Of a DNA stretch of 64,000 bases, positions 4,669 to 28,992 are shown piece after piece. Below the pieces are notes generated by a model. The model saw only the letters and a program-made list of their open reading frames with translations. It was not told where the DNA came from and searched no databases. Both the position numbers and the translations under genes were made by a program. Source of the stretch: Dictyostelium discoideum (lineage: Eukaryota); assembly GCA_000004695.1 (NCBI GenBank), contig CM000155.2, forward strand, positions 64,001 through 128,000. Direction: 5' to 3'. Numbering within the stretch: position 1 is the first letter of the stretch; the number at the start of each line of letters is the position of its first letter.

Positions 4669-5232
4669 TACCTTCAATTTATTTTATAAAACTATTACAT
4701 AAATATATATATATAAATATATACATCAACATCCATATTTATTACAATTAAAAATAGAAAAAAAAAAAATTTAAAAAAAATAAAAACAAATAATATTTGT
4801 AAAAAATAAATTAAAAAAAAAGAAATAAAAAAAAAAAAGTTAATATTATCTTTTTATTTGTATTTTATTACTTTATACATAACCCCACTTTTAAAAATTA
4901 AAAAAAATAAAAATAAAAAAAAAAAAAAAAAAGATATAACAAAATTGAATATTTGAATAATCTTAAGTAAAATAAATACCACATTTTCAAATTACAAAAA
5001 TTATTATTATTATTAGTTATCATAATTTCTAGGTTTTATTAATAATGATCGATTAGGTTAAATATAATTATTTAAAAAAAAATTTTAAAATATTTACAAA
5101 TAAATCCAAAAAAAAAACTATTTAAACAGGATTTTTTTTATTTTTTTTATATAAATCAAAACAATCAATAAAAATACTAATTATATAAAAAATTCATTTT
5201 ATAAAAATCTATATTAAAAATAAAACTTAAAG

Positions 5233-5619
5233 ATGATGATTAAAGCTATCCTTTTAATTTCTTGTATCTTTGCATTCTTATCAATGGGTGTTATTTCTGA
5301 CTCTAACCAAATTTCAATGTCTCAAAATCAAACATCAACATGGGATGATAAAAATACCACATTTACTGTTTGGGAAGTGATGTTGGTAAATAATTGGAAT
5401 GCAACAATTATTGACTTGACCATTACTGCAACCGCTAATTTCTTTTCTTCAAAACCAAGTGATATTTGGAATGTTGAAAAAGTTTCTGACAAAGTTTACC
5501 ATTTCCAACCATATTTAATCCAAAATGGTTTATCAACTGGTGAAAACTTCACCTTTGGTTATATCAATGAAGCTAAAACACAAGCAACATTTGAAATCTC
5601 AAACATTAAAACTAAATAA
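5233..5619 (+). CDS. Small secreted protein (signal peptide plus single beta-rich domain with conserved Trp/aromatic pattern; possible carbohydrate-binding-module-like domain)
   Basis: ATG at 5233 followed by a classic signal peptide (MMIKAILLISCIFAFLSMGVISD). The 128-aa ORF carries W/N/T-rich motifs (TFTVWEVMLVNNWNATIIDL ... GENFTFGYI) reminiscent of small CBM-type domains. Single exon. The function call is tentative. Confidence 0.5.
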   Translation: MMIKAILLISCIFAFLSMGVISDSNQISMSQNQTSTWDDKNTTFTVWEVMLVNNWNATIIDLTITATANFFSSKPSDIWNVEKVSDKVYHFQPYLIQNGLSTGENFTFGYINEAKTQATFEISNIKTK

Positions 5620-5907
5620 ATTAATTCATCAAATTTAATTTATTTTTGTAAAACCAATTATTATTTATATTATAAAATAATAAAAATAAAAAATTAAAAA
5701 ATAAATAAATAAATTTTATTTTTAAAATTATTTCAAATTATTTTTTTTTTTTTTAAATAGATTTTTTAATTTATTAGAAAGAAATAGAAAATATATTATT
5801 TATTTTTTTTTTTTTTAAATTTTTATTTTTTATTTTTTTCCATCACAAACCAATTTATTTTTTTTTTTTTTTTTATTTTTTATTTTAATTTAAAAAATTT
5901 TTAATAA

Positions 5908-6492
5908 ATGGAAAAAAAAAAAAATTTAGAACAAGATTGTATTTTTAGAATAGTTATTATTGGATATGACTATGAGTGTGGTATAAAATCGTTATTAAAA
6001 AAGTTTACTTTGGGAGAGTTTTCACCATTTCCTGAAAGTCAGGTTGGTGTAGACTTTGATATTAAAACTATAAATGTTGATAATCAAGATATTAAACTTC
6101 AAATTTGGCCCCAAAATAAATATTTTAATGACACTTCAGATAAAAGAGATTTCCTTTACAAGGGAGCCCATGGATATTTATTAGTGTATGGATGTCATAG
6201 CCAAAAAAGTTTTGATAATCTATTAAATGATTGGATGGTTCAAATTGATAAATTTTCAAATGAATTCTCTAAAAGGAATTTAGTTTTGGTTTGTAATAAT
6301 TCTGAAACTCCTGAAACATACATGACCAAACCAAATTACCTTGTTGATTCCAATATTACCAAACAATGGGCAAATTCAAAAAATATTCCTTTTTTTGAAA
6401 TTAACCCAAAAGAGAACTTTAATGTTGATGAACCTTTTATACAACTTGCAAGGCTAATTAAAAACCAAAATTTTATTAATTCTACCAAATAG
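5908..6492 (+). CDS. Degenerate Ras/Rab-like small GTPase fold protein (pseudo-GTPase: P-loop and switch II catalytic motifs not conserved)
   Basis: ATG at 5908, 194 aa. The overall small-GTPase layout is present, but the canonical motifs are replaced: IVIIGYDYECGIKS stands where the P-loop GxxxxGK[ST] should be, DFDIKTI replaces the switch I region, and LQIWPQNKYF replaces DTAGQE. The remainder (GAHGYLLVYGCHSQKSFDNL ... LVLVCNNSE) still aligns to G4/G5-region topology (NKxD replaced by CNNSE). Coding-like composition. Confidence 0.6.
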   Translation: MEKKKNLEQDCIFRIVIIGYDYECGIKSLLKKFTLGEFSPFPESQVGVDFDIKTINVDNQDIKLQIWPQNKYFNDTSDKRDFLYKGAHGYLLVYGCHSQKSFDNLLNDWMVQIDKFSNEFSKRNLVLVCNNSETPETYMTKPNYLVDSNITKQWANSKNIPFFEINPKENFNVDEPFIQLARLIKNQNFINSTK

Positions 6493-6727
6493 AAAAGTTT
6501 AATTTTCACTTCCAATTATTAAGGGTATAAATTTCCTTTAATTTCAATTCAATTTTCTCTCTTTAATTTTTTTAAATAAAAAATAAAACTATTTTGAAAA
6601 ATGGGTTTTAATGAAAAAAAAAAAAATAGTTGTATATTAAATCCTTAATGTTTTTTTTTTTTTTTTTTTATTTTTATTTTTATATTTTTTTATTTTATAA
6701 TATTTGTTTTTTTTTTTTAAAATTGAT

Positions 6728-14572: not shown

Positions 14573-14788
14573 TTATTTCTTTTTTTGGTTTTTTTGAACT
14601 CTCTCTGTGAATAAAAAATTTTTATTTTTTTTTTTTTAAAAAAAAAAAATATAAATTTTTTTTTTTTTATTTTTTTTTTTTTTAAAAAAAAAAAAAATTT
14701 CGTTTTTGTGCGTACAAACTAAAAAAATTTTTTTTTTATTTTAAATTTTTTTTTTTAGTTTTTCATAAGATAGAGATAGAAAGTTAAA

Positions 14789-16092
14789 ATGGTATGTGTA
14801 TAATTTTAAGTTTTATTAATAGAACTAATAATGATAAAGAAAAAATTAATTTGAAAATAAAAAATAATATGAGTGTTTATTATAAATAAACTCTTTTTAT
14901 TATTTAATTTTTTATTTTTTCATTTATTTATTTTTTTTTCATTATATATAAAAAAAAACTTCTTTAATGTTCTCAATTTATTAACACTTTTTTTTTTTTT
15001 TTTTTTAATTTCATTACCTTTATTTAGGCAGAAAAAGAACAAATTAAATTAGTCTTAGTTGGTGATGGTGGTGTTGGTAAAGTAAGTAAAAGAAGTTCGT
15101 AAAAAAAATAAAAAAATAAAAAAATAATAATAATAAAACATCAAATCATATTAATTTAATTCTTTCTTCTTTTTTTTAGACCACTTTTGTCCAACGTCAT
15201 CTTACTGGTGAATTCGAACCAAGATATATCCGTATGTATCCTTTTATTATTATTTTTTTTTTCTTACAAAAAAAAAAAAAAATAAAAAAAATAAGATTTA
15301 GCAATTGATCTCAAATTACAGAATATTTAATATTGGTTTATTTGGGTAGCAATATGTTTTTTTGTTAGTCAAAAGCTTATCACTTTACAATATTTAGGAA
15401 TCAAATTTTAACTGTTTTTTTTTTTTTTTTTCCTTTTTTTTTTTTCTTCAATAATATAGCAACTCTTGGTGTATCAGTCCATCCATTAATCTTCTACACC
15501 AATTTCGGTAAAATCCACTTCAATGTATGGGATACCGCTGGTCAAGAAAAATTCGGTGGTTTAAGAGATGGTTATTAGTAAGTTGAATATAAACACACTC
15601 ATCCATCATATGATCATTAACGAAATTAAATTACTAACTTTTTTATTTTTTAATTTTAATTTTTTTATTATTTTATATAGTATTCAAGGTAATTGTGCCA
15701 TTATTATGTTTGATGTCACATCCCGTATTTCATACAAAAATGTTCCAAATTGGCACTCTGATTTAACCAGAGTTTGTGAAAACATCCCAATCGTTTTATG
15801 TGGTAACAAAGTTGATGTTAAAGATCGTAAAGTCAAACCATCCCAAATTGTTTTCCATCGTAGATACAATTTATCATACTATGATGTTTCAGCCAAATCA
15901 AATTACAATTTCGAAAAACCATTCGTCTGGTTAACATCAAAACTCCTCGGTAACAAGGCTGTCACTCTCGTTCAACAACCAACCTTAAAATTACCAGAAA
16001 CCGTTCTCGATTCCAACTTAATGAGTTTATATGAAAAAGAAGTCGCTGATGCTGCTGCCCTCCCATTACCAGAAGACAATGATGACTTGTAA
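14789..16092 (+). CDS. ranA: GTP-binding nuclear protein Ran; 5 exons, first coding exon is the ATG alone
   Basis: Model: join(14789..14791,15028..15081,15180..15231,15460..15577,15681..16092). The spliced product is a full-length canonical Ran: [91 protein letters not shown]...[10 protein letters not shown]...[12 protein letters not shown]...LPEDNDDL. The ATG is followed immediately by a GTATGT donor. The other donors are GTAAGT, GTATGT and GTAAGT, all introns ending in AG. Confidence 0.93.
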
Positions 16093-16307
16093 ACAAATTT
16101 AAAAAAAAAAAACAATAAAAAAAAATAATAATAATAATAATAAAGCCAACAATAAATTTCAATAATCTCAATCCACCTAAATGCATAATAAACAAAAACA
16201 AAATATATAATATATATATATATATTTATATCTAAAAGAAAAAAAAAAAAAAACAATATTAAATATTAATTTATTTCGATCATAAAAAAAAAAAAAAAAA
16301 AGTATTT

Positions 16308-17780
16308 TTATTGAATACCATATTTTTTTATTGTATTATCATACCATCCCTTTCTAATTTGTTTATCTTTTTCTTTTAAATTTGACTTGAATATTTGTTT
16401 TGGATTTAAATCTAGTGGCCAAACAGGTAAATAGATTACTTTTTCAGGGTCATCAACAGTCATACCCTTTTTAAACATTTCAACACCAGCCCATGCAATC
16501 ATGGTTCCATTGTCATTACATAATTCGGGTCTTGGGAAATAGATTGGCAAATTATAACGTTTTCCAATATCATCTATTCTTTTTCTTAAATTATTATTCT
16601 TTGAAACACCTCCAGAAACTACAATTCCTTTTAGTGGTTCCCTTTTAATGATTTCTATTGCCGGAGGTTTACCACTTTTTGTTTTTGATGCTAATAATTC
16701 ATTTTTCTTTTGTTTTGGTGTTTTAAAATTATAATACCAATCTAATGACTTTTTAATTCTATGTTCTAAATGATTAAATGCAACATTTTGAAATGATGCT
16801 GCTAAATTACATTTATCAACGAATGATAATTCATTTTCATCTGTTATTAAATTATTTGTTTCTGTTGTTATTATTGTTGTTGTTGTTGTTGTTGTTGTTG
16901 TTTTTGTTGTTGTATTATTAGTTATTGATGATGATGAAGATGATTTTGATTTAATTTCTTTTACTAATCTTGCAAGTGAAGATTTTATACCAGAAAAAGA
17001 GAAATCACAATTATTTGAATCTTTCATTGGTAAAGTGAAATGATGACTATTTGGATCACCTTTTGAAGCTAAAATTTCAATAGCTTGACCGCCATGTATA
17101 TTCTCGATTAAAGATTGACCATCCCAAACTTGGCCATATGGACAACCCAAGATTCTTGCTGCTTTATCTAATGCTTCACCAATAGAATCATCCAATGTAT
17201 TGCCAATGAGTTGATATTTTGAAACATCATTACATATTAAAATTTGTGAATGTCCACCACTGACCAATACAATAAGAAATGGAAATTCAATTGAATGGTT
17301 TTCCATTCTAACCACTAAACTATGACCTTCCATATGGTTCACTGAACAGAATGGTTTTTTAAATTCTCTATACAATTGTTTGGCTTTGTTTAATCCAACT
17401 TCCAATGATTTACCCATACCTGGTCCCGTTGTAACCGCTATTACATCGATATCCTCCATTGTCATACCAGCTTTATCCAATGTTTTTTCAATGGCATTAT
17501 CAATCTCATTTTGATGTGCTTCAAATGCAATTGATGGTACAATTCCATTATGTACTTTATGTAATGACCATTGAGGTTTAGAATATTCTGCCATAATCTT
17601 TCCTTCACTATTTACAATGCCAATACTTGTATCATCACAACTAGTTTCAATACCAATAACATTAAATATTTTCTTATTATTAATATTATTATTATTAAGA
17701 CCACTGCCACTCATTTTACTATAATATTTTAGATTATTTTTATAAAAATTATTTTTAATTTTATAAATTGATCTTATCAT
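16308..17780 (-). CDS. osgepl1: tRNA N6-adenosine threonylcarbamoyltransferase, mitochondrial type (Kae1/TsaD family; Qri7/OSGEPL1 ortholog) with an internal Ser/Thr-rich insertion
   Basis: Single exon with a real ATG at 17780. It carries TsaD/Qri7-type motifs (IGIETSCDDTSIGIV ... VTTGPGMGKSLEVGLNKAKQL ... SVNHMEGH ... VSGGVSKNN). It is more like bacterial/mitochondrial TsaD than cytosolic Kae1. The N-terminus has a basic, presequence-like extension. A roughly 45-aa S/T-rich insertion is encoded partly by a (TTG)n/(ACA)n microsatellite. Confidence 0.88.
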   Translation of the reverse strand: MIRSIYKIKNNFYKNNLKYYSKMSGSGLNNNNINNKKIFNVIGIETSCDDTSIGIVNSEGKIMAEYSKPQWSLHKVHNGIVPSIAFEAHQNEIDNAIEKTLDKAGMTMEDIDVIAVTTGPGMGKSLEVGLNKAKQLYREFKKPFCSVNHMEGHSLVVRMENHSIEFPFLIVLVSGGHSQILICNDVSKYQLIGNTLDDSIGEALDKAARILGCPYGQVWDGQSLIENIHGGQAIEILASKGDPNSHHFTLPMKDSNNCDFSFSGIKSSLARLVKEIKSKSSSSSSITNNTTTKTTTTTTTTTIITTETNNLITDENELSFVDKCNLAASFQNVAFNHLEHRIKKSLDWYYNFKTPKQKKNELLASKTKSGKPPAIEIIKREPLKGIVVSGGVSKNNNLRKRIDDIGKRYNLPIYFPRPELCNDNGTMIAWAGVEMFKKGMTVDDPEKVIYLPVWPLDLNPKQIFKSNLKEKDKQIRKGWYDNTIKKYGIQ

Positions 17781-20843: not shown

Positions 20844-22689
20844 ATATTGTTATTGGTGTGAATTATCATTATTGTTGTTTTAATTAAACACTAGTGTTAT
20901 TAACATTTATTTTATTTTAAAATTTATAGCATTACTCTGAAATTATGCCATTTTTAATTAAAATCCTCAGAACTCAAACATCAGTTGAAACTAAAACACT
21001 CCGTGGTAGAGCCATTGAAACCATCTCTTTAGTAGGTCTTGCTGTAGGTAAAAAAGTATTTTTAAATGATTGTATTCAAATCATTCAATACGTTTCATCT
21101 TTAGAGAAATTCAAAGATGACGATCCACAAGTTGATTTCTTTTTAAGAGCATTCACTCGTTTCGCCCAATGTCTTGGTGAAGATTTCATTCCATACCTTA
21201 AATACTCTATGAGTCCATTAATGGATGCTATCAATGGTAAAGTTGACAGTTCCGTTGAAAATGGTGAAGATTTTAGTGATGAAAGTGTAAGTGTGACCCA
21301 TTGTTTATTATTAATTATTATTTTTTTGGAAAAAAAAAAATTATTAAAATTTTTATTTTTTTTTATTTATTTATTTATTTATAGAATAACTCTGGTTCAA
21401 TTGTTATGGAAAATAAAGCAATGGCATTAGAAATGGTATCAATTTATGCAATGGAATTAAAACATCATTTATTCCCATATGTCGAACAATTATATAAAGG
21501 ATCAATTGAATTAGTTGATTTCCCATTTAGTAGTTTAGTTGCAATTCAAGCAGTTAATCTTATTCCATTTTTGGTAAAGATTTCAAAACAACACTTTGAA
21601 GCCGTTGGTGGCCTTAAAGATGGTATGAAAGCTGAATTCACCAGTAGATTATTCTTGGATTCATATGAACGTATGGCTGCTTCCATTAAAACTGAATCTG
21701 AACCAGATACCCTCTCTGCTAAATTAAAAGCATTGTCTGATCTCATGGATATTGGTGGTCAATGTGAACAAGCTGATAGAATTCTTAGTCTCACCTTTGA
21801 AGTTGCCAATGAATCTTTCGGTACCCTCCAAGAGTTGGAAACTGAATATCAAGAAAATATCGATGAAGAGGATGAAGATGCTGATGAATCACCAGAAAGA
21901 GAGATCATTGATGATGCCTACAATAGTTTAGCAATGGTATTGGGTGAAGTTTGCATTCAATTCAAAGAAAAAGCCGTCCCTTACATTGCTACCGTCTTAC
22001 CAGCCATGATTGAACTCATTGAAACTGCTCCATCCGTTGAAATTAAAACCTCTATGATTTGCATTCTCGATGATCTCATTGAAAATGGTGGTCAAAAAGC
22101 TTTTGAACTCTATCCACACATCATTAAGCCAATGATGAATTGTACCTTACCAAATCTTGATCCATCACTCATACAAAGCGCTGTTTTTGGTATTGGTTTG
22201 GCCGCTGAAAATGGTAAAGATTATTTCACTCCATTCTTAATGGAATCACTTCAACTCATCAACAACGTCATTGTCTCTGTAAATAGTGTTCAAGAGCAAG
22301 ACGATGATTTAATTGCTGCTAGAGATAACGCAATCTCTGCTATGGGTAGAATCATCACAAATCTTCCACAACATTTAGGTAACAATTTCCCACAAACTAT
22401 TGCCCTTTGGTTAAGTTATCTCCCAATTCAAGATGATGGTGAAGCAGGTTCAATCATTAAATCTTTATGTACTTTGATTCGTGACTTTAGTCAACAAATT
22501 ATGACCCAACAATATATCGTTAAAGTTTTGGAAATCATTGCCGTAGGTCTCCATAAAAAAGCTGTCAACCCTGATGATAAACAAATCATCTCTTTGGCTC
22601 TTCGTTCTCAAGAATCTTTAGTCGCTCAATCCCTTTTCCAATTATCTGCTGAAAACCAAGCTATCCTTGCAAACTTTTTCAAAAATTAA
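18693..22689 (+). CDS. Importin-beta family nuclear transport receptor (importin-5 / RanBP5 / Kap121-Pse1-like); 7 exons
   Basis: Model: join(18693..18854,19109..19594,19689..20006,20090..20313,20398..20749,20930..21286,21385..22689). The N-terminus, MNLQPITDLLKALNSGNTTTIQQAEQLYADYKNHQPDQLV, is an importin N-terminal domain. HEAT-repeat blocks follow (LRSYPPVLLRTLVNG ... KWPEILSFIIESSSSPEENLRESSFYLIGAI ... CAPTLLNSGNWKERYTGLMTLSSISEGC). Donors are GTATGT, GTGTGT, GTAAGT, GTATGT, GTAAGT and GTAAGT. Intron 5 contains a pure (CAT)21 run. Confidence 0.82.
20781..20843. repeat. (CAT)21 microsatellite inside importin-beta intron 5
   Basis: Direct reading shows a pure catcat... run. The flanking GTAAGT donor (20750) and TTTATAG acceptor (20929) define the intron. 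Confidence 0.9.
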
Positions 22690-23605: not shown

Positions 23606-23911
23606 ATGAGAGAATTTTTAAAAGATGATTATGATGTAATAGTTTGTGGTGGTGGTCCAGTTGGTATGTTAATTAATTTTTAATTTTATTCATTTATTTT
23701 TGTTATTAATGAAAAAAAAATAATAATAATAATAAAAATAATAATTATAAAAATAATAATAATTTAGGTTTGGCTACTGCATACAGATGTGCCAAAGCTG
23801 GAAAGAAAGTACTTTGTCTCGAAAAATCAGTATTCTTTAATGGAGGTGGTAGTAGTGGTGATGTTGTTAGAATGTTACGTACAATGTACACTGAAGATTA
23901 TGTAAAGTGTT

Positions 23912-23957
<46 letters not shown>

Positions 23958-26900
23958 GAAATAAATAAAATTTAAAATTGTACTAATAAATTTACTTTAT
24001 TTTTAGATGGCCGATTTAGCACATGAAACCCTTGGACTCTGGAAAGAACTTGGTGATGATGCTGGTGAAGGTGATTTAGTTTGGATGACAGGTCTCCTAA
24101 ATTTTGGTGATCCAAATTATGGTGCAGGTGGTCCAGAAGGTACTTTATTAGGACCAATTCCAAATTTAGAGAGATTGGGTATGCAATACAAAGTGTTAAC
24201 TGCTCAAGAAATTATGGAAGAGTATCCATTTAGAAACATTCCATCCAATCACCAAGGTGTTTTTGCTCCAGACAATGGTGTTATCAATTTACCATTGGTA
24301 TTACGTTCTCTTTACAAGTTATGTTTACAATATGGTTGTAAAATGGTAAGCCATGCAGAAGTTAAACTTATTAAAAATCTTAGCACAACAATGGTTGAAA
24401 TTGAAGTTGAACACACCGATGTTGACCAAAAAAATAAACAATCCTTCAAAGTTAAAAGTAAAAAAGCTGCCATTACCAGTAATAGTTTCTGTAATCATAT
24501 TATTAAACCATCATTTGGATGGGAATTAGATATGACCATTTGGGAAATGACTTCAAGTTATTTCGTTGCAAAACCAGGTCCAAATGCAACTGGTAAGTTT
24601 GTTTTATCTATATATTAGTTTATTTATGTATTTTTTTATAAAATTTATTAATATCTTTTAATTTAATTTTTAGTTTTCAAAAGTATGTGGTTCAATTTCC
24701 AAAATGATACTGATAATGACCCAACAAAATCAAATTTATACTACGGTTTCCCAGCTGTACCATGGATGACTGATAACCATTGTAGAATTGCATTGGATGC
24801 AGCATTACGTCAAATTAAAGATCCAAACGATCGTCATGATGGTGTTGAAACTCATGATGTTAATCGTACTCGTGACTGGGTTAGAGAACATATTCCAGGT
24901 GTTGACGATACTCCACTCTTTAACGTTAGTGCACTCATGGCAAATGTTTATGATAATATGTTTGTTTTAGATTTTATCCCAGAAACTAATAATAACGTTG
25001 TCATGTTTGCATGTGGTTGGGCTATGAAATTTATTCCATTATTAGGTAAAATTCTCAGTCAATTGCTTGATGAAGGTAAAACCCAATATCCAATCGATCA
25101 TTTTGCATTAAATCGTGGTAATGGTGCATTAATTATCAAAGAAGGTCAAACACCAAAGTCTGTTAATAGCCAAGTTAGAGCACCACGTTATACCTCTATG
25201 CATTGTAAACCATTAACTATTGCCAAATCAACTGTACCAACAAATCAATCATCAAATCCAGATGGTGCTTCTTCAACTGCTCCAACTCAATCTTTAAGAT
25301 CATTGTTTGCTAGCAGACTTTTACAAAGAAGTGTTGGTATGGAAGCTAAATTCCATTCAATCATTGCCAAGAATAGAAGCAAACGTTCAACCAAAGCCTC
25401 TCAAAAGGATTTGACCGTTGGTATTATCGGTGCTGGTATGGCTGGTTTATATGCAGCTATGATTCTCCAAGATTTAGGTCTCCAATATAACATTTTGGAA
25501 GCCAATAAAGAGAGAGTTGGTGGTAGAATCTACACCTATAGATTCCCACAAAATCAAGATAAATATCAAACCGTTGAACTTGGTGCAATGAGATTCCCAA
25601 AGATTGAAATTATGGATAGACTCTTAAATCTTGATAAACCTTGGTCACTCTTTTCCAAATTAGAAAAAGCTGGTCACAAAATCCCAACCATCCCATATCA
25701 TCTCACAGTTGATAACAATTTGGTTTATTACAATGGTAAGAGAATCTTTGCCAATACCTTGTTGAATGATGATCCACTTTACTTTAGTGATACTCACAAT
25801 GGCGGCCCAGGTACAGCTGTTCCAGACAAGTATACCTATCAACCATATGGTGACTTATTGGATGCCGTTTATAAGAAATTCTCTGATGACTTGGAAAATG
25901 ATTTCGAAAGTGGTTTTGAAACCCTCTTAAAATCAGATAACTATTCAACCAGAGCTTATTTATTCGAAAAAGGTCCATATCCACAATCAGTTGTCAACTA
26001 TCTTGAAACTATGGACACTGGTACAGGTTTATATGATATGGCATTCTCTGAAACCATTATGGATTATTTCGATTTCAGTGCAGGTGATGAATGGTTATGT
26101 ATTGATGGTGGTACAGATATTATTGTCAATTCTATGGTTAAAACTTTAAGACCAGGTTGTATTGAACAAGGTAAAGTTGTAACCAAAGTTTCTAGAGTAG
26201 TAGGAAAGAGTGGTGATGTTAGCAATTTGAAAGTTGATTTCCTCGATGGAACTGAAGGTCGTTTATTCAAACATGTCATTAGTACTGGTACATTGGCATC
26301 ATTACGTAGAGTTGATTTAAGTGATTTGAAATTATCGCACAATAAGAGAACTGCAATTCGTTCTCTTCATTATGATCACTCTGTAAAGATTGCCCTTTCT
26401 TTCAAATCAAGATGGTGGGAAGATTCCAAATTCATGAATGGTAAACCAATGCTCGGTGGTAAATCATCAACAGATCTTCCAGTTCGTACCATCGTCTATC
26501 CATCCTATGGTATTGGTCAACCAGGTGTTAGTGGTGTTTTAATCGTTTCTTACACTTGGAGTTTAGATGCATCCAGAATTGGTAGTTTGGTTGGTGATAG
26601 ACCAAGTGAAGAGGTCTTAATCAAATTATGTATGGCCAATCTTGCTGAAGTTCACAATGTTCCAGTCGCTACCCTCCAACAATTATTTGTTGATTACAAA
26701 TGTTGGGATTGGTATAATGATGATTATTCATCAGGTGCATTTGCTCTCTACAGTCCATCACAATTCTCTCAATTGTTCCCATCACTTACTAAACCATCAC
26801 CAGATGGTAGATTCCATTTAGCTGGTGAAGCAACATCTGTTCATCATGGTTGGGTCATTGGTTCTCTTAACTCTGCCTATCGTTCAGTCGATCACATTCT

Positions 26901-27138
26901 TCAAGTTGAAGGTCTTGATGAGTTACGTGCCAAATTACGTCTCAATTGGGGTTTCATCGATGAAGTTGAAGATCCTCAAGATGATCAACAATATGTTGAC
27001 CCACATCACAATTTAAGTGGTCCAAATGCTAAAAAATTCAGATCAAATGTATCACAAGTTGCCATTCAACCAAGATTCAAAGCTCCAAGAAACTTTAAAC
27101 CAAGAAATACTGCTGCTAGTATTGGTGGTCTTAAATAA
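23606..27138 (+). CDS. Two-domain flavoprotein oxidase: N-terminal monomeric-sarcosine-oxidase/DAO-family domain fused to C-terminal L-amino-acid oxidase / flavin amine oxidase domain; 4 exons
   Basis: Model: join(23606..23663,23768..23901,24007..24592,24674..27138). The N-terminal part (MREFLKDDYDVIVCGGGPVG|LATAYRCAKAGKKVLCLEKSVFF...; ...FACGWAMKFIPLLGKILSQLLDEG) is MSOX/PIPOX-like with a GxGxxG dinucleotide fold. After an S/T/Q-rich linker (about 25200-25400) there is a second Rossmann motif with the LAAO/MAO-family signature (LTVGIIGAGMAGLYAAMILQDLGLQYNILEANKERVGGRIYTYRF). The amine-oxidase C-terminal FAD-contact motif is also present (FHLAGEATSVHHGWVIGSLNSAYRSV). The 2.46 kb of exon 4 stays in one frame across both domains. 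Donors are GTATGT, GTAAAG and GTAAGT. Confidence 0.75.

Positions 27139-27357: not shown

Positions 27358-28992
<1,635 letters not shown>

Follow-up and report, generated by a model that had tools for sequence, protein, structure and literature searches.

A single Dictyostelium gene encodes two fused flavin oxidase domains

In the 64,000-nucleotide stretch of Dictyostelium discoideum DNA analyzed here (the window), positions 23606-27138 of the + strand hold DDB_G0291301, whose four exons encode a 1080-aa product, slightly shorter than the ~1100 aa first estimated for it. The three introns (104, 105 and 81 nt) all run GT..AG and have a GC content of 6-10%, whereas that of the exons is 33-37%. 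After splicing, the product matches XP_635128.1 / Q54EW2 at 1080 of 1080 residues. A tblastn search of the window with this protein returned no further copy besides the gene itself. Its features are as follows.

23606..23663, + strand: exon 1, with the ATG at 23606 and the beginning of the N-terminal FAD (Rossmann) motif DYDVIVCGGGPVG
23664..23767, + strand: intron 1, GT..AG, 104 nt, 6% GC
23768..23901, + strand: exon 2, carrying Arg54 (23869-23871) and Arg57 (23878-23880), equivalent to NikD Arg50 and Arg53
23902..24006, + strand: intron 2, GT..AG, 105 nt, 10% GC, with a long T run
24007..24592, + strand: exon 3, middle of the NikD-like domain, with Glu108 (24136-24138), equivalent to NikD Glu101
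24593..24673, + strand: intron 3, GT..AG, 81 nt, 10% GC
24674-27138, + strand: exon 4 as a whole
24674..25125, + strand: exon 4, first part, the C-terminal third of the NikD-like domain up to aa 410, with Tyr283 (24742-24744), Asp301 (24796-24798), Ala346 (24931-24933), Trp375 (25018-25020) and Lys378 (25027-25029)
25126..25284, + strand: exon 4, spacer, aa 411-463, Ser/Thr/Pro-rich and poorly conserved, with predicted disorder at aa 421-463
25285..25395, + strand: exon 4, propeptide-like amphipathic helix, aa 464-500, containing QSLRSLFASRLLQRSV (from motif alignment, AlphaFold2 and Foldseek)
25396..26982, + strand: exon 4, L-lysine alpha-oxidase-like domain, aa 501-1029, with a second Rossmann motif, GIIGAGMAGLY, and residues Asp723 (26062-26064), Asp827 (26374-26376), Thr710, Phe727, Ala950, Gly985 and Trp986
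26983..27138, + strand: exon 4, disordered C-terminal tail, aa 1030-1080, with the TAA stop at 27136-27138

A preliminary description of this DNA had placed two complete FAD oxidase folds, one of the DAO family and one of the L-amino-acid oxidase (LAAO) type, in one gene, and the peptide motifs it quoted are all found in the product. The Pfam search it proposed bears this out. DAO (PF01266) matches aa 10-390 at E 2.2e-33 and Amino_oxidase (PF01593) matches aa 515-1002 at E 3.5e-46, each over the full profile, so that the C-terminal half is indeed an amine-oxidase fold. The DAO-family domain spans aa 8-410 and the amine-oxidase domain aa 505-1029, both complete. AlphaFold2 predicts two confident folds (pLDDT >90), with aa 421-463 as a disordered spacer between them (pLDDT <50). 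Because their relative arrangement is undefined in this model (pTM 0.59), we claim neither a substrate channel nor a domain interface.

The unbroken 2.46 kb frame reported across the junction corresponds to an ORF at 24685-27138 (2454 nt, 817 aa) that lies inside a single exon; it starts within the DAO domain, crosses the linker and stays open until the amine oxidase ends. Since the junction falls inside one continuous ORF, no intron, stop or mis-join splits the domains. A mis-joined gene or artefact, initially kept as an alternative, is excluded by this single ORF, by the exact RefSeq match and by an architecture shared with orthologues from D. citrinum, D. firmibasis, D. dimigraforme, D. purpureum and Cavenderia fasciculata. 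The tandem arrangement is not undescribed, as had been supposed: the UniProt/RefSeq entry is named 'Putative bifunctional amine oxidase', a name that also stands in published proteomics tables, so the fused architecture, already in databases, is not new. The database name of Q54EW2, like the sub-names of the entry, points to sarcosine oxidase and L-amino-acid oxidase activities of a generic kind. Two proteomic studies have detected the protein and one microarray study the transcript; we found no experimental characterization of Q54EW2, and in the three papers that name the gene it appears only as an entry in omics tables. The fusion protein has no signal peptide, and its C-terminus (...IGGLK) shows no PTS1-like ending. 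DDB_G0291301 encodes a single cytosolic-type polypeptide in which two enzymes that elsewhere form a conserved gene pair are fused.

The N-terminal domain resembles NikD

Comparison with solved structures predicts that the N-terminal domain is of the NikD type, not of the sarcosine-oxidase type. NikD is its best solved relative, matching at full length (aa 7-404, E 2.5e-49), while monomeric sarcosine oxidase (MSOX) covers half of the domain at E 3e-25. Foldseek likewise gives E 1.1e-36, TM 0.93 and rmsd 2.1 Å for NikD and 3.8e-30 and TM 0.88 for MSOX. Although identity to NikD is only 30%, NikD residues R50, R53, E101, Y258, D276, W355 and K358 are all kept (R57 = Arg53, E108 = Glu101, Y283 = Tyr258, D301 = Asp276, W375 = Trp355 and K378 = Lys358). 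Across the family, all 130 members have R50, Y258, D276, W355 and K358, and R53 and E101 are each present in 129 of them. We take Arg53 and Lys358 to bind the carboxylate and Trp355, Asp276, Tyr258 and Glu101 to be other active-site residues; Asp276, Tyr258 and Trp355 are presumably among those implicated in the NikD reaction. A Y258F NikD entry exists (PDB 3hzl). Neither NCBIfam nor Pfam holds a NikD-specific model.

The domain had earlier been described as MSOX/PIPOX-like. Together with the database names, that description yields a reading in which a sarcosine or N-methyl-amino-acid oxidase is joined to a general L-amino-acid oxidase, with demethylation followed by deamination. We consider this exceedingly improbable. 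It accords with the Pfam DAO and Amino_oxidase matches and with a weak, sub-threshold likeness to the MSOX and N-methyltryptophan oxidase (MTOX) models, but both curated cut-offs are missed: the domain scores 138.6 bits against 479.65 on TIGR01377 (soxA_mon, monomeric sarcosine oxidase) and 146.9 bits against 257 on NF008425 (MTOX). The active site is also NikD-type, with Asp301 and GWAMKF (Trp375) where the one aligned sarcosine oxidase, PDB 7exs, has His and GHGFK. In its functional sense, the MSOX/PIPOX-like label is not sustained, given the missed cut-offs, the closer match to NikD and the NikD-type active-site residues; for PIPOX, this judgment uses curated NCBIfam thresholds and active-site motifs rather than a PIPOX structure or sequence. 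The AmaA pipecolate oxidase model gives only a trivial Rossmann match.

At the covalent-FAD position (NikD Cys321), D. discoideum has Ala346, and the D. purpureum and C. fasciculata fusions also have Ala. Cys occupies this position in 124 of 130 relatives, all non-dictyostelid fusions included. With the attachment Cys replaced by Ala, the dictyostelid domain must bind FAD non-covalently. In MSOX, covalent flavinylation is said to be important, and losing the Cys reportedly weakens FAD binding and activity. The dictyostelid N-terminal domain might on these grounds be a degenerate or regulatory remnant, the protein being in effect an intracellular L-lysine oxidase. This we regard as very unlikely, for the N-terminal domain is conserved like the C-terminal one (62 and 57% identity between D. 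discoideum and D. purpureum or Cavenderia, against 70 and 55%) and the spacer is not (only 15-43% among fusion homologues). All other active-site residues are kept, and AlphaFold2 predicts a well-ordered fold.

The C-terminal domain resembles Trichoderma L-lysine alpha-oxidase

The C-terminal domain is predicted to be a Trichoderma-type L-lysine alpha-oxidase (LysOX). Its best solved relative is the T. viride enzyme (E 4e-97, ~40% identity), and Foldseek superposes it on mature LysOX with TM 0.90 and rmsd 2.5 Å. The strict lysine specificity of LysOX involves D289, D392 and A517, and also T276, F293 and W553 (precursor numbering, PMC7844570). The aspartates also appear under an alternative numbering, as D289(D212) and D392(D315). 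The equivalents in the fusion are kept as Asp723, Asp827, Ala950, Thr710, Phe727 and Trp986, and the A552 position is Gly985.

The two Asp positions distinguish this domain from broad-specificity relatives. Where the Dictyostelium fusion has Asp/Asp, Glu and Gly are found in the hcLAAO4, Rhizoctonia and Laccaria LAAOs. The secreted, stand-alone Dictyostelium paralogues carry Ser or Thr, and the Asp/Asp lysine signature is present in 8 of 8 same-order fusion proteins. A lysine-specific Asp pair in place of the broad-LAAO Glu/Gly argues further against a general L-amino-acid oxidase coupled to N-demethylation.

The region between the domains had been characterized as a Ser/Thr/Gln-rich linker. 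Only part of it is a linker: aa ~464-500 form a conserved helix whose homologue in the Trichoderma L-lysine oxidase precursor is helix alphaN. The fusion shares a motif, R-x-x-[WF]-A-x-R-L-[LV], with the T. harzianum precursor and with further fungal members; AlphaFold2 places helices at aa 467-477 and 480-496 within this segment, and the Foldseek alignment spans 610 columns against the precursor (7d4c) and ~535 against the mature enzyme. The C-terminal domain would come with a homologue of the regulatory or chaperone propeptide helix of the Trichoderma enzyme, whose role is treated in PMC7844570.

NikD-like and amine-oxidase genes are neighbors in fungi and bacteria

The N-terminal domain is genetically linked to a predicted producer of piperideine-2-carboxylate (P2C), by its fusion to the LysOX-type domain and through gene neighbors: of the 10 loci examined, 9 (3 of the 4 fungal ones and all 6 bacterial ones) place a stand-alone relative with ~50% identity next to an amine-oxidase gene. 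Trichoderma harzianum, Orbilia javanica and Hypsizygus marmoreus have a divergent pair with a LysOX-type partner; in T. harzianum that partner is none other than the orthologue of the LysOX precursor. Neighboring locus tags point to such a pair in Rostrohypoxylon and Cosmosporella as well. The Fusarium oxysporum locus has no amine oxidase within 8 kb.

At the six bacterial loci the pair lies on the same strand in an operon-like arrangement, and the partner is a different, non-orthologous L-lysine oxidase lineage that matches the characterized AncLLysO. The two partners searched against the PDB, from Microcoleus and Rhizobiales, matched AncLLysO at E ~1e-220. Identity to AncLLysO is 58-60% in five of the six and 35% in the Chloroflexi one. 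AncLLysO R76, G251, Y253 and K387 are kept in all six partners and E383 in four; in the other two, Gln replaces Glu383, which counts against the reading that we favor below. The recurrence of lysine oxidases of two unrelated lineages as conserved partners speaks once more against a pairing of N-demethylation with general amino acid deamination.

Two-domain fusions occur in at least three architectures. These include fusions in reverse order from other eukaryotes, one of them a bdelloid rotifer whose LAAO is of the animal type; Didymodactylos carnosus is among the sources of fusion proteins, and one metagenomic fusion protein is encoded on a gene-poor contig of 868 kb with a eukaryotic look. 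The pair is divergent in Ascomycota and Basidiomycota, an operon in several bacterial phyla, and fused in dictyostelids, other protists and bdelloid rotifers.

A proposed route from lysine through P2C

We consider it probable that the C-terminal domain acts first, turning lysine into P2C, and that the N-terminal domain then oxidizes P2C, probably to picolinate. Judging by homology and specificity residues, the C-terminal domain would oxidize L-lysine to 6-amino-2-oxohexanoate, releasing NH3 and H2O2. By established chemistry, this keto acid cyclizes spontaneously to delta1/delta2-piperideine-2-carboxylate (P2C). The N-terminal domain would oxidize P2C, most likely by NikD's four-electron aromatization, to picolinate with two more H2O2. 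Overall, this would amount to L-Lys + 3 O2 -> picolinate + NH3 + 3 H2O2. Such a sequence would be similar to the NikC/NikD steps in nikkomycin production, with an oxidase, fused to the second enzyme, in the place of the aminotransferase. NikD converts P2C to picolinate, and P2C is formed by lysine alpha-deamination (PMC4021061, PMC11446937). The idea of two coupled sequential oxidations, raised in the preliminary description, survives in principle; its order, N-demethylation and then deamination, does not, as the evidence favors the C-terminal domain acting first.

Among the points that count against a lysine-to-picolinate route are the loss of the covalent-FAD Cys in the three dictyostelid fusions compared, the Fusarium oxysporum locus with its lack of an amine oxidase, and the hazard that three H2O2 per lysine would pose in the cytosol. 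Our searches of the searchable literature found no report of picolinic acid from Dictyostelium and no paper linking a lysine alpha-oxidase to NikD or picolinate. With identity to NikD at only 30%, the N-terminal domain could also perform a related but different oxidation, a two-electron one on P2C or one of pipecolate.

The second of these would belong to catabolism by the pipecolate pathway, in which the C-terminal domain makes P2C, a separate reductase makes L-pipecolate, and the N-terminal domain, as a PIPOX-like oxidase, yields P6C and then aminoadipate semialdehyde. The N-terminal domain does fall within the MSOX/PIPOX superfamily, its relatives are auto-annotated 'sarcosine oxidase/L-pipecolate oxidase', a passage in PMC11121954 ties Trichoderma LysOX to pipecolic acid formation, and a fusion of steps 1 and 3 of one pathway is plausible. 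We nevertheless judge this reading unlikely, given the shortfall on the monomeric sarcosine oxidase model (139 against 480 bits), the trivial, Rossmann-only AmaA match, and the NikD-type Asp276/Trp355 active site in place of the His/His of 7exs, the one sarcosine oxidase aligned. In addition, no reductase gene is conserved beside the pair in the 9 linked loci.

A different end product is improbable to a similar degree. Here the N-terminal domain would make one two-electron oxidation of P2C, to a dihydropicolinate or didehydro-pipecolate-type product that other enzymes use or reduce, or whose formation merely pulls the lysine oxidase reaction forward. For DmgAA7, a homologue of NikD and CrmD, a reaction that ends at a delta1,delta3-P2C intermediate has been proposed (PMC11446937). 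The low identity to NikD fits such a divergence, and the lack of a conserved partner reductase in the linked loci tells against this reading as well. So does the retention of the NikD active site: all checked residues, including Asp276, Tyr258 and Trp355, whose roles we presume, are invariant within the counts given above.

Returning to lysine-derived picolinate, we tentatively read the fusion, with slightly less than even confidence, as a 'Rosetta stone' for a widespread, unrecognized module in which an L-lysine alpha-oxidase and a NikD-like P2C oxidase convert lysine to picolinic acid and three H2O2. If true, eukaryotes would have a kynurenine-independent, lysine-derived route to picolinate, and the Trichoderma L-lysine oxidase would gain a physiological context, for example a combined oxidant and metal-chelator defense. 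The specific functional pairing, consecutive enzymes acting on lysine-derived P2C, appears to be new. Its confirmation would put a misleading annotation right, supply a substrate for a large 'sarcosine oxidase-like' protein family of fungi and bacteria, suggest a biological purpose for the biotechnologically used Trichoderma enzyme, and offer an oxidase-driven lysine-to-picolinate route expressible as a single polypeptide.

Comparison with known systems

With MSOX, N-methyltryptophan oxidase and PIPOX, the N-terminal domain shares the PF01266 superfamily fold and the Arg + Lys carboxylate-binding pair. It differs from MSOX at three positions: Asp301 replaces His269, Trp375 replaces the GHGFK His345, and Ala346 replaces Cys315, which carries the covalent 8alpha-S-cysteinyl FAD.

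The closest solved homologue of this domain, NikD of Streptomyces tendae (PDB 2oln, 2olo, 2q6u, 3hzl), converts P2C to picolinate in nikkomycin biosynthesis. Like NikD, the Dictyostelium domain is linked to an enzyme that, by prediction, makes P2C from lysine. Where the nikkomycin pathway uses the NikC aminotransferase, Dictyostelium has an oxidase, which is fused to the NikD-like domain; the dictyostelid Cys321 position is Ala, and there is no nikkomycin-type cluster. The stand-alone fungal and bacterial family (~50% identity) is much closer to the N-terminal domain than NikD is.

The AncLLysO-type bacterial L-lysine alpha-oxidases (PDB 7eih, 7eii; PMC8405998) would play the same role beside a NikD-like partner. 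As amine oxidases they belong to a lineage of their own, share only ~23% identity with the Dictyostelium C-terminal domain and are unfused in the loci examined.

Trichoderma viride/harzianum prLysOX (PDB 7d4c, 3x0v, 7c3h) is the closest solved homologue of the C-terminal domain, and the lysine-recognition residues and the propeptide helix motif are common to both. Trichoderma LysOX is an extracellular enzyme. The precursor stands alone at 617-618 aa, whereas the Dictyostelium counterpart is a fused domain with Gly at the A552 position and an additional disordered tail of ~50 aa. Trichoderma LysOX is activated by removal of its propeptide (PMC7844570). Whereas that propeptide is N-terminal, the similar helix of the Dictyostelium protein lies in its interior and follows another enzyme.

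A single gene encodes two FAD oxidase domains

The window is rich in AT, its genes carry introns, and its protein matches point to Dictyostelium discoideum as the source. In it lies DDB_G0291301, a gene of four exons.

Exons of the fusion gene (window positions)
23606-23663, plus strand, exon 1
23768-23901, plus strand, exon 2
24007-24592, plus strand, exon 3
24674-27138, plus strand, exon 4

The three introns are short, bounded by GT..AG, and have a GC content of 6-10%, against 33-37% in the exons. Splicing yields a 3243-nt coding sequence for a protein of 1080 aa (XP_635128.1/Q54EW2). Pfam searches with this protein matched both expected families at full length, DAO at aa 10-390 (E 2.2e-33) and Amino_oxidase at aa 515-1002 (E 3.5e-46). 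The junction between the domains falls entirely within exon 4, where one ORF (24685-27138, 817 aa) starts inside the DAO domain, upstream of the GWAMKF motif, and spans the linker and the entire second domain; a mis-joined pair of genes, which the preliminary description had kept as an alternative, is therefore excluded. The same fusion occurs in other dictyostelids, with orthologues in D. purpureum (1075 aa), Cavenderia fasciculata (1108 aa) and other Dictyostelium species (1077-1081 aa). An AlphaFold2 model built on a 108-sequence alignment has a mean pLDDT of 87, with both domains above 90 and disorder at aa 421-463 and 1030-1080. Two proteomic data sets include the protein, and one microarray table lists the gene; among the papers that mention the gene, all of them through omics tables, there is no functional study. 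The two-domain observation is thus confirmed, while the architecture, thought at first to be undescribed, is already catalogued: databases annotate the fused gene as "Putative bifunctional amine oxidase".

The convergent downstream neighbor (27358-28782, minus strand) is a serine hydroxymethyltransferase gene, whose 304-aa exon matches the Pfam family at E 3.9e-108; a long homopolymer A/T run at ~28380-28440 lies in its intron and flank. The ORF upstream (21406-22689, plus strand; 427 aa) resembles the C-terminal exon of a longer protein built of helical repeats and gave no Pfam match at E<=0.001.

The N-terminal domain is NikD-like

When the N-terminal domain was searched against all PDB sequences, three NikD entries ranked first over its full length (aa 7-404, E 2.5e-49), whereas monomeric sarcosine oxidase (MSOX) matched aa 8-198 only (E 3e-25) and N-methyltryptophan oxidase (MTOX) scored 7e-19. 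Foldseek comparison of the domain model gave the same ranking, with a TM-score of 0.93 to NikD (rmsd 2.1 Å, E 1e-36) and 0.88 to MSOX (E 4e-30). Scores against the NCBIfam models soxA_mon (139 bits) and MTOX (147 bits) fell far under the curated cut-offs of 480 and 257.

We then aligned NikD with 130 family members and compared active-site residues, which we take to have catalytic or binding roles in NikD. R50, Y258, D276, W355 and K358 (NikD numbering) are invariant, and R53 and E101 are each kept in 129 of the 130; the seven Dictyostelium equivalents, in ascending order, are R54, R57, E108, Y283, D301, W375 and K378. In an alignment to NikD, the solved sarcosine oxidase 7exs instead has His opposite D276, and GFSGHGFKF where NikD has GAGWAFKF, so the Asp and Trp are NikD-type features. 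By these criteria the N-terminal domain is NikD-like rather than sarcosine-oxidase-like, and the sarcosine or N-methyl amino acid chemistry first proposed for it, disfavored by both the active-site type and the family scores, is now very improbable.

One NikD-defining feature has no match in the dictyostelid domain. The covalent-FAD Cys321 of NikD corresponds to Ala346 in D. discoideum and to Ala in all three dictyostelid fusions compared. Of 130 relatives, 124 have Cys here, among them every fusion from outside the dictyostelids. The fusion protein would be expected to bind two FAD per chain, the one in the N-terminal domain non-covalently. Might the domain be degenerate? Its identity between D. 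discoideum and D. purpureum or Cavenderia is 62% or 57%, beside 70% or 55% for the C-terminal domain and 43% or 20% for the spacer. With conservation resembling that of its partner, the N-terminal domain is, as judged from these orthologues, not decaying, which makes degeneracy quite unlikely. NikD itself converts piperideine-2-carboxylate (P2C), formed from L-lysine via the 2-aminotransferase NikC, to picolinate (PMC4021061, PMC11446937).

The C-terminal domain carries a lysine signature and a propeptide-like helix

The best PDB matches to the C-terminal domain were Trichoderma viride L-lysine alpha-oxidase (LysOX) and its precursor (E 4e-97); Hebeloma hcLAAO4, an L-amino-acid oxidase (LAAO) of broad spectrum, came next (2.5e-89). 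Foldseek aligned the domain to mature LysOX with a TM-score of 0.90 and an rmsd of 2.5 Å; the alignment grew from ~535 columns for the mature enzyme to 610 for the precursor 7d4c. LysOX owes its strict lysine recognition to D289, to waters held by D392 and the A517 backbone, and to a hydrophobic hole; T276, F293, A552 and W553 also belong to its active site (PMC7844570). At T276, D289, F293, D392, A517, A552 and W553, Dictyostelium has Thr710, Asp723, Phe727, Asp827, Ala950, Gly985 and Trp986. The two Asp positions are Glu and Gly in hcLAAO4, Glu/Gly or Glu/Ser in Rhizoctonia and Laccaria LAAOs, and Ser or Thr in stand-alone Dictyostelium paralogues with signal peptides. Asp/Asp is found in 8/8 same-order fusion proteins and in all fungal members linked or co-located with a NikD-like gene. 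These two positions discriminate the lysine-type signature from that of other members.

The segment between the domains had been described as a Ser/Thr/Gln-rich linker. A disordered Ser/Thr/Pro spacer is indeed there, but the remainder, which follows it, is a helix of propeptide type (aa 467-496 in the AlphaFold2 model), making the linker composite. This helix contains RSLFASRLLQR, a motif whose aligned counterpart in the LysOX propeptide of T. harzianum is RTRWARRLVRE; other fungal members have equivalents that also align. In T. viride the propeptide helix suppresses activity and probably aids folding (PMC7844570). We infer from this that the C-terminal half represents an alpha-oxidase specific for lysine, joined with its propeptide helix.

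The two enzyme families are linked in fungi and bacteria

A word-indexed search with the N-terminal domain returned ~220 stand-alone relatives of 400-460 aa, ~50% identical, from fungi and bacteria, and we inspected ten loci drawn from these. In T. harzianum, the gene ~1 kb from the NikD-like gene and divergent from it encodes a protein of 618 aa, clearly the orthologue of the L-lysine alpha-oxidase precursor. Orbilia javanica and the basidiomycete Hypsizygus marmoreus have the pair in this divergent arrangement too, and consecutive locus tags suggest the pairing in Rostrohypoxylon and Cosmosporella. The Fusarium oxysporum locus is a counter-example, with no amine oxidase found within 8 kb of the NikD-like gene. 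The T. harzianum locus (L002) also holds a second DAO-family gene (4725-6497, minus strand; 510 aa, with introns) beside the pair and an amino-acid transporter gene (Aa_trans, 14738-16644). Trichoderma may have a more extensive lysine-related gene cluster here. The Orbilia and Hypsizygus loci conserve neither of these two genes.

The six bacterial loci came from Microcoleus, Cytophagaceae, Rhizobiales, Chloroflexi and two metagenome-derived genomes. In each of them the NikD-like gene has a direct neighbor on its own strand that encodes an amine oxidase of 572-617 aa; the two genes overlap by 4 nt at one extreme and lie 159 nt apart at the other. These partners share only ~23% identity with the Dictyostelium/Trichoderma type. 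The two searched against PDB, from Microcoleus and Rhizobiales, match AncLLysO (E ~1e-220), a characterized ancestral L-lysine alpha-oxidase (PMC8405998); identity to it is 58-60% in five of the six partners and 35% in that of Chloroflexi. Among the AncLLysO key residues (PMC8405998), R76, G251, Y253 and K387 are present in 6/6 and E383 in 4/6. The bacterial partners thus form another lineage, so that two non-orthologous lysine oxidases have been recruited beside one NikD-like family. Gln replaces the essential Glu383 in the Microcoleus (L003, 6465-8318) and Chloroflexi (L006, 4192-5958) partners, which hints at an altered substrate or another mode of epsilon-amino binding.

Fusions and paralogues elsewhere

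We searched 1.84 billion representatives exhaustively and mapped the domains of the matches, which revealed three fusion forms. Two have the domain order of Dictyostelium, one with a long linker and the other with a short linker; in the third the order is reversed, so that an animal-type LAAO precedes the NikD-like domain, often with a C-terminal transmembrane helix. At least one reverse-order fusion is from the bdelloid rotifer Didymodactylos carnosus. Such a helix is predicted at the C-terminal end of reverse-order fusions P0021, P0022, P0169, P0215 and P0218; P0022 is an intronless 872-aa ORF (L001, 6001-8619) on a gene-poor 868-kb contig. In the metagenome fusion P0014 (1253 aa), ~120 additional aa separate the FQF motif from NLYYGFP within the NikD-like domain. 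This stretch is absent from the other homologues and could represent either a genuine insertion or an intron left unspliced.

In D. purpureum, the stand-alone paralogue P0143 (642 aa) bears the Asp/Asp lysine signature and is 61-64% identical to the C-terminal half of the D. discoideum fusion protein. Its presence on a 62,527-nt contig, like that of the fusion P0012, suggests that both share a scaffold, and P0143 may have arisen by recent duplication of the oxidase half. Other stand-alone LysOX-family paralogues in Dictyostelium species (P0295, which is DDB_G0271476; P0145; P0291-P0294) begin with a signal peptide and have residues other than Asp at the positions that specify lysine; they are probably secreted LAAOs with other specificities.

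A proposed route from lysine to picolinate

Alpha-oxidation of lysine yields 6-amino-2-oxohexanoate, which cyclizes to P2C, and NikD aromatizes P2C to picolinate. Two intact FAD oxidase domains in one chain, NikD-type and LysOX-type active-site signatures, and recurrent family linkage form the basis of our model. The C-terminal domain would first oxidize L-lysine, and the N-terminal domain would then oxidize P2C, most likely to picolinate, for a net reaction of Lys + 3 O2 -> picolinate + NH3 + 3 H2O2. Sequential coupling of both domains via P2C or a close derivative is likely, and picolinate as the end product has close to an even chance. The combined model, with the C-terminal domain first and the N-terminal domain acting on P2C, probably to picolinate, is moderately favored. 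A minor modification, in which the N-terminal domain makes only a two-electron oxidation, is unlikely. Equally unlikely is a pipecolate pathway with the N-terminal domain as pipecolate oxidase: the active-site type, family scores under curated thresholds and the absence of a linked reductase all speak against it. Neither a signal peptide nor a PTS1 was found in the fusion protein, and its detection in cytosolic pull-downs suggests that it resides in the cytosol.

In the searchable literature we found no report that L-lysine alpha-oxidase is paired with a NikD-type P2C oxidase, that the two are conserved as neighboring genes or an operon, or that they have fused repeatedly across kingdoms. The prediction, inferred throughout, is concrete, cheaply testable and of reach beyond Dictyostelium. 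The proposed pairing would follow the logic of NikC and NikD, with an oxidase replacing the aminotransferase and both steps fused into one protein.
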